From contig OX597831.1 in NCBI GenBank assembly GCA_951406725.2, positions 43,028,001 to 43,092,000 on the forward strand: a DNA stretch of 64,000 nt. Direction: 5' to 3'. Below the pieces are notes generated by a model. The model did no database searches. It was given only the letters and a program-made list of their open reading frames with translations, and had not been told where the DNA came from. How positions within the stretch are numbered: the stretch's first letter is position 1; every line of letters begins with the position of its first letter. Source of the stretch: Octopus vulgaris (taxonomy: Eukaryota). Of this stretch, positions 1,580-58,725 are shown one piece after another. The translations under genes and the position numbers were made by a program.

Positions 1580-1910
1580 AGACACCCTTCAGTCCTGAAT
1601 GACCATGGAATTGCACCTAGAAAGATTCCCTCTGAGGCACAAGTCCGGGCAAGTTTGCTTATGGAAGACATGCAATCACCCATGCATACCAGTGTCCCGT
1701 CTCCATGCCACCAATGTTGCCAAAGGAAAGGCAAAGGATGATACAACTTGGTACCAGTAATGTTACAACTCAATTCTACAGTTGGGTGAACTGAAGCATT
1801 GAGAAATAAGTCTCTTTCTCAAGGACACAACACACAGCTTGGTTTGGTAATCAAACTCACCACCTCATGATTGTGAGCCCAATACTCTAACCACTGAGCC
1901 ATGCATCTCT
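1580..1910 (-). mobile_element. tRNA-derived SINE, family C (degenerate)
   Basis: Homologous to 20087-20422 and 44569-44860, with a tRNA-like A-box head (TGGCTCAGTGG) on the minus strand. Confidence 0.75.
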
Positions 1911-1936
1911 ATAATAATAATAATATATATATATAT

Positions 1937-2192
1937 TGGCAAAAATGGTAAATTAACAAAAGAAAGAAAGAGACCTCAATATTATGTAAATAGAGGAAAT
2001 TTATCTGTAAATTAATATGTGACAATTATTCGGTAGCCAAGATAAAACTCTGAGTTTCAGATGCCGAGGTGGAAATCCACACCACCATCTGGGATGGCCA
2101 GATAACCGAAGAGATGGTGGTGTGGATTTCCACCTCGGCATCTGAAACTCAGAGTTTTATCTTGGCTACCGAATAAGTGTCACATATTAATT

Positions 2193-2196
<4 letters not shown>
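1937..2196. mobile_element. Inverted-arm hammerhead-bearing element in (TA)n (putative non-autonomous Penelope-like), copy 1
   Basis: 85-bp arms at 2006-2090 and 2112-2196 with 1 mismatch and a 21-nt spacer. Homologous to 58075-58340 in the opposite orientation. (TA)n lies on both sides. Confidence 0.7.
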
Positions 2197-2228
<32 letters not shown>

Positions 2229-11670: not shown

Positions 11671-12272
11671 CATATATATATTAGAGAAGGAGGGAGAGAC
11701 AGACAGACAAACAGACAAATAAACAGGAGAGGTTTCCACACTGTTTCTCTTTACCAATTTCGCTCACAAGGAATTGGTCAGCCCAGAGTATAGTAGAAGA
11801 TACTTGCCCAAGATGTCAAGATGTAGAACAGTGGGACTGAACCCAAAACCATGTGTTTGCAAAGCAACCTTCTTAACCATGCAATAATAAGTTTTCATTT
11901 TTTCTTTTCTTTTTGTTTTTTTTTGGTGTGTGTGACTTAGTTAGAAGGAAGGGATAGATCTGGTGATCTTTGCGGGCCTTCTGTGAATGGACTGACAAGA
12001 CTAATGCAGTTTATATTTGGCTTAAACATCTGTGAGGTCATGCTTGAAGAGAAGAAACAGAGATGTGTAACAGTGGTGGAGAGTTAATATCAAACAGTTT
12101 AATGTTTGGGGGTGGGGGTGAAAGGATTGAGCAATGAGTAATGTTTAGCGCAGATCCTGGGGTGCAAGAACAAAACACAGCATAGGCACAATGACAAAAA
12201 AAAAATACACATACACAGGTGTATTGAGTGAGCTTGAGTAGATGTCATATGCACTTTCATCTTTAACATCAT

Positions 12273-13281
12273 ATGATGATGATGAAGATAATGATGAAGA
12301 AGTGATGAAGATGATGATGATAGTGATGATGATGGTGGTGATGAAGGTGATGATGGTGGTAGTGGTGATGATGATGATAGTGGAAGTGGTCAAGGTGATG
12401 GTGATGTGGAGGAGAAGGAAGATGAGAATGATGATGGTGATGAAGGTGATGATGGTGGTAGTGGTGATGATGATGATAGTGGAAGTGGTCAAGGTGGTGG
12501 TGGTGGTGACGTGGAGAAGGAAGATGAGAATGATGATGGTGATGAAGGTGATGATGGTGGTAGTGGTGATGATGATGATAGTGGAAGTGGTCAAGGTGGT
12601 GGTGGTGGTGATGTGGAGGAGAAGGAAGATGAGAATGATGATGGTGATGAAGGTGATGATGGTGGTAGTGGTGATGATGATGATAGTGGAAGTGGTCAAG
12701 GTGGTGGTGGTGTTGATGTGGAGGGGAAGGAACATGAGAATGATGATGATGATAGTGATGATGATGGTGGTGATGAAGGTGATGATGGTGGTAGTGGTGA
12801 TGATGATGATAGTGGAAGTGGTCAAGGTGATGGTGATGTGGAGGAGAAGGAAGATGAGAATGATGATGGTGATGAAGGTGATGATGGTGGTAGTGGTGAT
12901 GATGATGATAGTGGAAGTGGTCAAGGTGGTGGTGGTGGTGACGTGGAGAAGGAAGATGAGAATGATGATGGTGATGAAGGTGATGATGGTGGTAGTGGTG
13001 ATGATGATGATAGTGGAAGTGGTCAAGGTGGTGGTGGTGGTGATGTGGAGGAGAAGGAAGATGAGAATGATGATGGTGATGAAGGTGATGATGGTGGTAG
13101 TGGTGATGATGATGATAGTGGAAGTGGTCAAGGTGGTGGTGGTGTTGATGTGGAGGGGAAGGAACATGAGAATGATGATGATGGTGGTGATGGTGATGAA
13201 GGTGATGATGGTGGTAGTGGTGATGATGATGATAGTAGAAGTGGTCAAGGTAGTGATGGTAATGTGGAGGAGAAGGAAGAG
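12273..13281 (+). repeat. Hierarchical GAT/GGT-rich minisatellite (102/105/105/120-bp monomers, 432-bp higher-order unit)
   Basis: Monomer starts at 12421, 12523, 12628, 12733 and 12853. Diagnostic variants (GAC, GTTGAT, GGGAAGGAACAT) recur at a 432-bp offset. Confidence 0.9.
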
Positions 13282-13400
13282 GTTTTACTTTAGTCCATCT
13301 TGTTACTTGTGTCCTAATACTTTCTCAGTCCAACTTTAAACACACTTCAAAAGAGCAAGCCAATGACGAAACTGAGAACACTATGTTTATGAGGTCAAAG

Positions 13401-26988: not shown

Positions 26989-27773
26989 CATACAACAGGC
27001 TTCTTTCAGTTTCCACCTACCAAATCTACTGGTTGGTCTGAGGCTATAGTAGAAGATACTTACTGAAGGTGTCATGCAGTGAAAGCAAACCTAGAAACCA
27101 AGCTTCTTTATTCCACAACCATATATATATATGTATAATATATGTAACAATTAAATTATATATTTATATAGGAAGGGCATCCAGCCGTAGAAACACTGCC
27201 CAGATTTGACTGGGCCTGATGAAGCCTTCTGGCTTCACAGACCCCAGTAGAACCGTCCAACCCATGCTAGCATGGAAAACGGACGCTAAATGATGATGAT
27301 GATGATGATGATGATATAATTTATATATATAATATATATATATATAATTTATATATATAATATATATATATATAATTTATATATATAATATATATATATA
27401 TAATTTATATATATAATATATATATATAATTTATATATATAATATATATATAATATATATATATATAATTTATATATAATATATATATATATAATTTATA
27501 TATATAATATATATATATATAATTTATATATATAATATATATATATATAATTTATATATATAATATATATAATTTATATATATAATATATATAATTTATA
27601 TATATAATATATATATATATAATTTATATATATAATATATATATATAATTTATATATATATAATATATATATATAATTTATATATATATAATATATATAT
27701 ATATAATTTATATATATAATTTATATATATATATATATATATAATATATATATATAATTTATATATATAATAT

Positions 27774-27815
<42 letters not shown>

Positions 27816-28108
27816 ATATATAATATATATATATAATTTATATATATAATATATATATATAATTTATATATATAATATATATATATATAATTTATATATA
27901 TAATATATATATATAATTTATATATATAATATATATATATAATTTATATATATAATATATATATATAATTTATATATATAATATATATATATAATTTATA
28001 TATATAATATATATATATAATTTATATATATATATATATATATATAATTTATATATATAATATATATATATATAATTTATATATATAATATATATATAAT
28101 ATATATAT

Positions 28109-28161
<53 letters not shown>

Positions 28162-29419: not shown

Positions 29420-30421
29420 ATAAGAAGTTAAGTGAATAATGATTTCTGATAGAAAAACTAGGAAGGTAATGGCTATGCATGAGTGTCTTCATATTAGAAG
29501 TAAGATAGCAAGGCTTTACTTACCTAGGACGGAAGATGGAAGAGGATTGATTGGAATAGAGGATAGTGTTGTGAATGAGATTGAGTCCTTACATGCCTAT
29601 CTGAGGAATAGTCATGAAAGAATGTTGCAGGATACACTGGGTGAGAAGGTGATCAATGACAATGGTGAAACTCTCCAGGAGTACAATATCAGGACTAATA
29701 GAGAAAAGATCATCAAGTGGAATGAGAAAGTCCTACAGGGAGACTTCTTCCAACAAACATTGGATGAAGCTGATGAAGAATCCTGGAGATGGTTAAGACG
29801 GTTCTATTAATGAAGGAGACAGAACTGATCGTTGCTATCATGAACAAGCTTTATGAACTAACTCAATGAAGTGTAGTATTGATATGACAGCAGTATCAAC
29901 TTTGTGCAGACTATGTGGAAAACCATCTGAGACAGTTAGACTACTAGTTGATGCTCAAAAGTAGCCCAAAATGAGTACAAAAACACCATGACAAAGTAGC
30001 AGTGTGAATACATTGGGAGTTGGGCAAGAAGTATAGGGTAGAATGTTCCAACATGTGTTATGAGTACCAACTCTTGCCATTAGCAGAGAATGATCAGGTG
30101 AGGCTCACATGGGATATGCCAATATATACACATACCAAAAGCTGCAACATAACTCACCAGATATCACTACCTTACTGAAGGAGTCCAAAGTATGGACCTT
30201 CATCAACTTAGTTATACCTGTAGATCAGAATAATATTAAGACAGGGCAAGAAAATTGAGAAGAACCAAGACCTAGGATTGAATGTGGAAAGAATTCATAG
30301 AGCCTCAAAAGTGAGTGTGGCACCTCTTGTGATTGGTGCACTTGGGACCCTCTCAAAGAGAACAATATTCTGGCATCAAGAGCTGAAAATACGAAACTTC
30401 ATAGGAAGTATTCAGTTGGCA
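29420..30421 (+). mobile_element. Degenerate non-LTR retrotransposon with restriction-like endonuclease (R4/Dong-like), 3' portion
   Basis: DRKTRKVMAMHECLH..ARLYLPRTEDGRGLIGIED, then frameshifted LCRLCG (zinc-knuckle), HDKVA..IHWEL, LTWD, SPDI, KNQDL and PLVIGALG motifs. Confidence 0.85.
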
Positions 30422-44004: not shown

Positions 44005-44081
44005 GACCTTTTTTTCTGTAGTTTTAGTTCAGAGCTGCAGCTATGCTGATGCACCGCCATTTGATATCTCCCAGGTGTGAA

Positions 44082-44265
44082 ATGGGCTGAATCCTGAAAG
44101 AACTGCAATACCAGGCCAACCCATGGCAAAGTCAGAGCAAGCCCCTAACACTTCACCTCGTTCTAAAAATCAAGTTAATATCGATGGCCCTAAATAGGGA
44201 CCGTATCAGATATTAAGCTGATAAGAACAGATACTACACATTGATCTTAGCCAAAAGGCCGAGAA
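44082..44265 (-). pseudogene. U2: U2 snRNA copy, near full length (probable pseudogene)
   Basis: Minus strand: TTCTCGGCCTTTTGGCTAAGATCAATGTGTAGTATCTGTTCTTATCAGCTTAATATCTGATACG..., Sm-like GATTTTTAG, and stem-loop IV loop TATTGCAGT. The canonical first 5 nt ATCGC are replaced by TTATA, and CpG-decay-type changes occur in the 3' stems. Confidence 0.93.
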
Positions 44266-44391
44266 TATAATATATCTATTAGTTAAGGTCATTGGCATAA
44301 ATGGTAAGAGCTTTAGGGAATGTTTGAACAATGGGTTAAAAAAATGGTAAAATGTGATCTAAGAGGCATCTTATGTAATCTAGAATTTTAA

Positions 44392-57771: not shown

Positions 57772-58038
57772 TATATATATCATCGCTTAACAACCAGTGC
57801 TGGTTTGTGAACGTGCTCATAGCTTAGTGATTCGGCAAAAAGACTGATAGAATAAATACCGGGCTTATTCAACCGAAAAACATTCTGAGGTCGATTCATT
57901 CGACTAAAAACTCTTGAAGGCATTGCTCCAGCATGGTCTCAGTCTAATGACAGAAACAAGTAAAAGATAAAAGATGATAGAGGTGTTCAAACATCTGCCT
58001 ATTGGTAGCCTACATTCATCTTAAGATACATGAAGAAG

Positions 58039-58074
<36 letters not shown>

Positions 58075-58082
<8 letters not shown>

Positions 58083-58340
58083 AATATGTTACATTACTCG
58101 GTAGTCAAGATAAAACTCTGAGTTTCAGATGCCGAAGTGGAAATCCACAACACCATCTCTTCGGTTATCTGGCTATTTCCGAAGCGAAGAGATGGTGTTG
58201 TGGATTTCCACTTCGGCATCTGAAACTCAGAGTTTTATCTTGACTACCGAGTAATGTAACATATTATTGTATAGATAAATTTCCTCTATTTACATAATAT
58301 TGAGGTCTCTTTCTTTCTTTTGTTATCTTACCGTTTTATC
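58075..58340. mobile_element. Inverted-arm hammerhead-bearing element in (TA)n, copy 2
   Basis: Perfect 89-bp arms at 58075-58163 and 58185-58273, a 21-nt spacer, and a one-sided extension to 58340. Confidence 0.75.
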
Positions 58341-58725
58341 TATATATATATATCTATATATATATATATATATTGACAGAATGAGATGAAAAAAACTAAG
58401 GCAGTAAATAAGATTTCATAACATTTATCCTGGCTGATTTGAACACGAAATGTCAGACAGCGAATAAAAAGCAATTTTACATCATCCGTGTAAAGCTTAA
58501 TACATGCTTGTTCATTTATTTATTTTTCCTCGTCTTTTATATCCAATCCTATCTTTTGACATTTTATAAAGTCCATATATATATAAATATACATACATAT
58601 ATATATATATGTATATTTATAATCCTCCTACGCCATCTTACTACCGCCAGCAGCTTTACTAGACAGCGAGTAAAATCGAGAGAGAGAGAGAGAGCCATAG
58701 ATAAAAAGATAGACAAACACATTTA

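Follow-up and report, generated by a model that had tools for sequence, protein, structure and literature searches.

Hairpin cassettes with a variant hammerhead motif in Octopus vulgaris as probable truncated Penelope-like insertions

The window analysed here, i.e., the whole 64-kb stretch of Octopus vulgaris DNA, holds two hairpin cassettes of about 260 bases each. We consider it probable that both are truncated insertions of a Penelope-like element (PLE), in which two element ends were joined head to head between TA tracts while both cut strands primed reverse transcription. As a system, this architecture is ordinary and already in print, and the cassettes are most likely a known by-product of PLE integration. 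New here are the cassette family, its 65-68-nt tail and its variant core. The value of the cassettes is that of a test set for how inverted pLTRs form.

Results

Coordinates of all cassette parts are given in Table 1. They confirm the preliminary description in that the two cassettes lie in opposite orientation and share one common layout. A blastn search of the 64-kb window returned no third copy. TA tracts adjoin 4/4 cassette ends, and TA also follows the short end in contigs of the public runs X2 and X10 (see below), such that the proposed (TA)n target is supported. The tail is one-sided in both copies (2/2) and 65-68 nt long; the first 52 nt are identical between the tails of A and B, with differences confined to the last 16. 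That is, the outward-pointing 3' ends of the arms run into (TA)n, where one stops at an inner point and the other 65-68 nt further out.

Table 1. Positions of the cassette parts and of the features within them
Feature	Position	Strand	Remarks
Copy A left target tract, (TAA)n/(TA)n	1910..1937	.	ends in TGGC (1937-1940)
Copy A one-sided 3' extension (tail)	1938..2005	-	68 nt; 65 nt if 1938-1940 is a target duplication
Copy A long arm	2006..2090	-	3' end copy, truncated at hammerhead core position 9
Copy A spacer, 21 nt	2091..2111	+	helix I 5' strand and CCGAAG; sense-continuous with short arm
Copy A hammerhead-like motif, type I	2095..2168	+	C3 at 2106, C instead of U4, predicted cut after 2156
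Copy A motif details			helix II 2113-2142, extra base 2143, GAAA 2144-2147, palindromic helix III (descriptor, pair list)
Copy A short arm	2112..2196	+	ends at inner 3' end point
Short frame	2114..2176	+	ATG at helix II start; position as in PAc (PMC11167929)
Copy A right (TA)n tract	2196..2225	.	TA-tract listing
Copy B (TA)n tract, short-arm side	58042..58078	.	TA-tract listing
Copy B short arm	58075..58163	-	outer few bases overlap TA tract
Copy B hammerhead-like motif	58102..58175	-	C3 at 58164, predicted cut after 58114; C-A mismatch in outer helix I
Copy B spacer, 21 nt	58164..58184	-	first 6 nt complementary to CCGAAG, repeat 5 nt of long-arm end
Copy B long arm	58185..58273	+	truncated at core position 4
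Copy B tail, 67 nt	58274..58340	+	comparison with copy A tail
Copy B (TA)n tract, tail side	58341..58373	.	one interruption

Several observations concern the flanks. Both short-arm flanks read (T)GGCTT; a target preference for this motif was considered from them and dropped, given that the contig ends do not show it. Among 252 TA-tract ends in the window, (T)GGC follows the tract at three, all of them at cassettes (1937-1940, 2226-2230, 58036-58041). TGGC of copy A (1937-1940) and (TA)n-GGC at 2196-2228 form a possible target-site duplication. To the right of copy A, a GC-richer stretch of 110 nt (2226-2335) lies between two TA tracts and is single in the window. Around the cassettes and throughout the window lie dispersed SINE-like repeats of two or more abundant families, with copies at 1701-1905, 57781-57975 and some 20 further sites.

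We also compared the arms within and between copies. The arms of copy A form 85 bp with one mismatch, those of copy B 89 bp without any. In the 85 columns common to the four arms, 8 substitutions sort by copy and none by arm; one further column combines a gap in both B arms with the single mismatch of A. All four variants that the preliminary description had reported as present in both arms of their own copy are among the 8. For these two copies, arms are thus 99-100% alike within a copy, compared to 88% identity between A and B, and the clustering of left arms with left arms that had been named as contrary evidence is not seen. The sorting of 8 to 0 and the differing inversion points support the view that the arms were made per insertion. 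The earlier wording, i.e., a palindrome built at each insertion, is likely right, but describes what is largely expected from known Penelope-like insertion. With two copies at hand, later gene conversion between the arms may still have played a part.

The spacer was described as 21 nt in both copies, which holds for its length but not for its sequence stretch, which differs; the long arm of B extends 5 nt further than that of A, to core position 4. The starting points of the two spacers are no more than 1 nt apart and lie at the base of helix I (n=2), where an RNA may begin or the RT may halt. At the junction of copy B we find a 6-bp DNA fold-back (-4.3 kcal/mol) with a 5-nt slip, and the junction repeat is likely a templated slip, whereas no fold-back stem is seen at the junction of copy A (-0.1 kcal/mol). 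The tail sits on the arm without spacer in both copies. The inversion points precede the predicted cut by 45-65 nt and each of the four arms reads across it, so the arms were not made by cleavage.

Differences between A and B affect 18 of 174 columns and are unevenly distributed. Two runs are free of them, one of 53 nt that covers most of the single-copy tail and one of 30 nt that takes in GAAA together with helices III and I; the chance of both difference-free runs is about p=0.001, and of the longest alone 0.018 (both post hoc). This is the pattern that would be expected for different constrained source copies rather than for neutral decay.

Spacer plus short arm had been read as a hammerhead fold, and descriptor matches far above chance argue for this predicted structure. 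It consists of an 11-bp helix I with one bulge, CCGAAGA, a helix II opened by G-C, an extra pyrimidine, GAAA and ACTC-A-GAGT, with the predicted cut of copy A after UU at 2156. The descriptor was tuned to the cassette motif in that it accepts two deviations seen there, namely a C at position 4 and an additional base. Both strands of the 64 kb give exactly these two matches. Thirty block-shuffled versions of the window gave none, and of 20,000 shuffled versions of the 106-nt unit one matched. The whole motif is found once per cassette, i.e., only in short arm plus spacer, while the long arm is without the first part of the core. Concerning the two irregularities reported earlier, the non-canonical U4C change is present in both copies (CCGAAGA), while the "extra T" is not generally a T, with C accounting for 46%, 52% and 92% of the depth in X2, X9 and X10, respectively. 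In the same contigs, the loop base of helix III (ACTC-R-GAGT) varies between A and G at 10-22%. This variation table covers 2125-2158 only, i.e., position 4 is outside the scored range. A canonical CTGAAGA core with a different helix II is found in at least 3 contigs of relatives (X9: 2; X10: 1).

With regard to the PLE minimal hammerhead, the core CUGANGA is replaced by CCGAAGA in both copies, and the extra base between 9 and 10.1 is absent, an extra base preceding GAAA instead. Two rows of a published hammerhead alignment are likewise without the base between 9 and 10.1 (PMC4209133). The G10.1-C11.1 pair and a palindromic helix III are present, with G2113 pairing with C2142 or with 2143 (C or T). 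The cassette motif thus departs from two features of the strict min-HHR consensus, and judged by its sequence we call it a variant hammerhead motif. U4C is a known natural hammerhead variant with much lower in vitro activity (PMC3088659). Rfam gives no hammerhead at gathering score in the window, nor at E<=10 in 1900-2250; its miRNA matches are all below gathering score, reflect the palindrome and were rejected.

The hammerhead fold differs from the minimum-energy fold of the monomer. In a dimer, two units are predicted to pair via helix III (-60.4 kcal/mol), a pairing that is over-extended into A13, A14 and U17. The predicted fold energy of the whole cassette is -154.5 kcal/mol vs. -44.2 kcal/mol for the halves apart, and the arm hairpin is predicted to bury the hammerhead motif in the cassette.

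Part of the cassette is contained in 20 of 24 listed runs, from 10 studies and 4 coded organisms. Four runs were aligned to spacer plus short arm, namely X2, X9 and X10 (contigs) and X22 (raw reads). In total, 4,195 contigs were placed (X2 3,653, X9 494, X10 48). By these counts, the cassette family is both diverse and abundant; we did not equate summed contig depth with copy number. For X22, none of the raw reads (1,934 million letters) was placed, which counts neither way. That X9 and X10 derive from RNA is a guess, and they were not used as evidence of transcription.

Upstream family sequence is found before 2093/2094 in at least 62 and at least 17 contigs of X2, at least 12 of X9 and at least 3 of X10; these loose-end figures stem from 18 of 114 rows, among the matches listed. 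It reaches at least 178 nt upstream of 2093 and ends in a T-rich run. Given that the family runs on upstream in other copies, the window copies are 5'-truncated stumps. A scan of the window for the upstream family motif gave one match at 3 mismatches where 0.79 would be expected, i.e., nothing above chance. At the 3' end, two classes are observed, i.e., contigs running into the tail (X9, at least 18+3) or into (TA)n (X2, at least 37; X10, at least 1). As a side observation, T-rich runs ending in AG lie beside the 5' end of helix I in some upstream contigs (2093-2095) and look like 3' splice sites, with a consensus agreement of about 0.5. In D. virilis Penelope, an intron end is located next to the helix I 5' end (PMC4209133).

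Some contigs show other joints. Two from X10 carry the reverse complement of the upstream motif before 2145 (17/17 nt, by eye), one from X9 has a weaker reverse-complement match before 2154 (by eye), and one from X10 joins 2142 to 2093. By sequence, these are likely further inversion points. Since the joints table for the 4,195 placed contigs is empty and 18 of 114 loose-end rows were available, they rest on these 4 contigs. Short-read contigs tend to break at inversion joints.

Exact-pattern scans with the cassette gave 0 matches in metagenome, viral and prokaryote contigs. A second metagenome pattern returned 7 loci, none of them similar beyond 20-24 nt, and was rejected as chance. We did not find the cassette family described in the literature, and motif searches of three papers' supplements were blank; the family may already be catalogued in repeat databases (Repbase, Dfam).

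Starting from the helix II ATG, both copies read through 20 codons before reaching a stop. At its stop, copy B reads GA-GTAATG, a putative 5' splice site which, together with the pyrimidine tract in the tail, makes a retained intron possible. PLEs are known to keep introns (PMC4209133). No splicing at GA-GTAA is found among the matches listed (18 of 114 loose-end rows). Of 171 window frames of at least 70 aa, 136 were scanned against Pfam without an RT or GIY-YIG match; the single match obtained was below cut-off and unrelated. A full-length RT+GIY-YIG element ending in the cassette sequence, for which the preliminary description had suggested a search, is thus missing from these 136 frames, and no relative was found in three public collections. 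The cassette motifs are not in the text of the Naiad/Chlamys/Hydra supplement, where line breaks could hide a match. The octopus Naiad consensus sequences were also considered as partner and gave no motif match there, a negative limited by these line breaks and by Naiad_Ovul lacking its pLTR. A frame of 124 aa at 29436-29807 (+) has no Pfam match; it resembles the C-terminal RT region of an R4/Dong-type non-LTR element.

Discussion

Standard PLE features are an inverted 5'-truncated copy, a tail of 30-40 bp at one end and (TA)n targets (PMC8557442). Like an endonuclease-bearing PLE insertion unit (PMC8557442, PMC3846280), the cassettes combine a head-to-head inverted pair, a tail at one end and a (TA)n target with a hammerhead and a start codon within the terminal repeat. 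The inverted 5'-truncated copy with variable truncation is seen in both window copies, and the hammerhead is present in the terminal repeat as a variant motif. In contrast to the PLE unit, there is no ORF between the repeats (both are cut back to about 100-170 nt), and the tail measures 65-68 nt rather than 30-40. Direct partial tandems (pLTR-ORF-pLTR) are absent from the window. By analogy, the cassette would work like a PLE insertion unit; the Penelope-like origin suggested in the preliminary description is thus backed by architecture rather than by a protein link. PLEs make up 6.83% of O. vulgaris with 190 families (PMC13282606), and Penelope is expanded in coleoids (PMC8967140).

A close experimental counterpart is PAc, a Poseidon element of Anolis carolinensis, the protein of which in vitro cuts and extends both strands of AT-rich DNA (Frangieh et al. 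2024, PMC11167929). Its reverse transcription begins at two neighbouring internal sites, the spacing of which equals the genomic tail, uncleaved RNA is used, and the start codon is at helix II (PMC11167929). The cassettes share with PAc the ATG at the start of helix II, the AT-rich target, two neighbouring 3' end points downstream of the hammerhead and inserts that span the ribozyme cut site. They differ in the frame, which closes after 20 codons, and in the ATG-to-cut distance of 42 nt vs. 26 in PAc. Compared to metazoan PLE hammerheads (PMC4209133), the motif is likewise of type I with a CYGAAGA core, a long helix II opened by G-C and a short palindromic helix III needing a dimer, and it occurs in opposite-strand pairs. 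Unlike these, it has C4, lacks the base between 9 and 10.1, carries an additional pyrimidine ahead of GAAA, and combines an 11-bp helix I bulged once with two internal mismatches in helix II. Cervera and De la Pena 2014 reported hammerhead pairs on opposite strands, separated by 100-700 bp, as truncated PLEs, and likewise palindromic helix III variants (PMC4209133).

Based on these parallels, the insertion can be sketched as follows. An RT-endonuclease would nick both strands of an AT tract, as suggested by the in vitro work on another element, and from each 3'-OH a cDNA would be primed on RNA that has not been cleaved, beginning at either of two adjacent RT start sites, such that the tail would correspond to the distance between them (all from PMC11167929). 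For the remaining steps we infer that transcripts of a single source locus template both cDNAs, that synthesis of each breaks off early, close to the hammerhead, and that their ends are joined with little or no microhomology; the spacer would then be the part copied by only one cDNA. Within the terminal repeat, the ribozyme would travel as a passenger. As the arm hairpin is predicted to bury the ribozyme, a completed cassette would be a dead end. A lone fold-back of a tail-primed cDNA is excluded by the position of the tail, which in 2/2 copies is borne by the spacer-free arm, while two priming events fit. On the other side, only 2 whole copies were read, the tail (65-68 nt) exceeds the reported 30-40 bp, C4 and the lack of an additional base after A9 set the core apart from the PLE consensus, neither the 136 scanned of 171 window frames nor the three collections contain an RT/GIY-YIG partner, and the 6-bp fold-back of copy B suits self-priming equally.

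Self-priming remains the main rival and can be combined with two-strand priming, although taken for itself we regard it as rather unlikely. It also assumes PLE origin and a palindrome made per insertion, but here a single antisense strand would form the mirror arm by folding back and serving as its own template, with one arm losing its tail later through trimming by the endonuclease. Such a model was proposed for inverted pLTRs by Arkhipova et al. 2013 (PMC3846280), and the tail was seen as a resolution product by Craig et al. 2021 (PMC8557442). It explains identical arms without two RNAs, it agrees with the copy B junction (6-bp fold-back, -4.3 kcal/mol, 5-nt slip), and equal 21-nt loops in both copies would suit a limit in loop size. 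Still, the copy A junction has no fold-back stem (-0.1 kcal/mol), and with the tail on the copied arm in 2/2 copies an extra trimming or second priming step is needed; furthermore, tail ends map to RT start sites in PMC11167929.

The preliminary description went further and assumed a distinct non-coding family with its own ribozyme-linked duplication, which finds no support here, as the family extends upstream and cleavage did not make the arms. In its strongest form, i.e., a self-standing, retrozyme-like ribozyme element whose cleavage or circular RNA drives duplication and inversion, we hold this to be improbable. Animal non-LTR retrozymes are similarly short, apparently non-coding and PLE-related with a type I hammerhead, and they are argued to be non-autonomous PLE derivatives (10.64898/2026.07.22.740005). 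The 20-codon frames of both copies, the spacer starts within 1 nt of each other at the helix I base, relatives with a canonical CTGAAGA core (X9, at least 2 contigs; X10, at least 1) and the predicted pairing of two units through helix III would all be in line with such an element. But retrozymes are head-to-tail tandems with a ribozyme per unit, while the cassettes are head-to-head pairs with one whole motif, and no head-to-tail tandem, the defining trait of non-LTR retrozymes, is found in the window. The predicted cut does not coincide with any arm boundary, the motif is predicted to be hidden within the palindrome, C4 lowers in vitro activity (PMC3088659) and PAc insertion needs no cleavage (PMC11167929).

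Even less credible to us is a MITE-like DNA element, i.e., one ancestral palindrome with arms kept alike after insertion by hairpin repair or gene conversion. Gene conversion in palindromes is established, and the cassettes are indeed small, non-coding, palindromic, located in TA tracts and very abundant (3,653 contigs in one run). However, the repeats are not terminal given the unique 65-68-nt tail at one end, the centre differs between the copies, and the arms sort by copy without fixed ends or a fixed internal layout. Other copies continue upstream of the spacer, differences are distributed unlike neutral decay, and the hammerhead fold is kept. We retain, as the more probable one, the reading as truncated Penelope-like insertions with two primed cDNAs.

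A bolder extension of that reading appears possible to us but doubtful. It assumes a very abundant non-coding Penelope-derived family whose template RNA would run from the upstream edge of the variant hammerhead and which would nearly always insert head to head via two primed cDNAs. If true, thousands of tiny copies would provide a natural record deciding between two-strand priming and fold-back self-priming for inverted pLTRs, as well as a genome-wide source of near-perfect 85-90-bp RNA hairpins.

How inverted pLTRs form has been named as a task for future work (PMC8557442); both-strand extension is shown in PMC11167929, while inverted copies are not explained in the parts of that paper covered here. 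Since the copies are so short, one read spans tail, both arms and junction, such that the side of spacer and tail becomes countable. For annotation, it matters that the cassettes resemble MITEs or microRNA hairpins (cf. the sub-threshold Rfam miRNA matches); they should be filed as retroelement stumps.

Further features of the window

Besides the cassettes, the window contains a U2 snRNA copy at 44077-44270 (-), which covers the full model length with 167.8 bits. One nt is inserted directly ahead of GUGUAGUA and the 5' end is changed; the copy is either a gene variant or a pseudogene. At 27255-28150, an A+T-only satellite with units of 11-15 nt appears to switch strand near 27763, which results in a long imperfect palindrome. 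Finally, a GAT/GGT-rich minisatellite at 12200-13300 contains a 99% identical repeat at 432 nt spacing and is open in several frames as low-complexity peptides.
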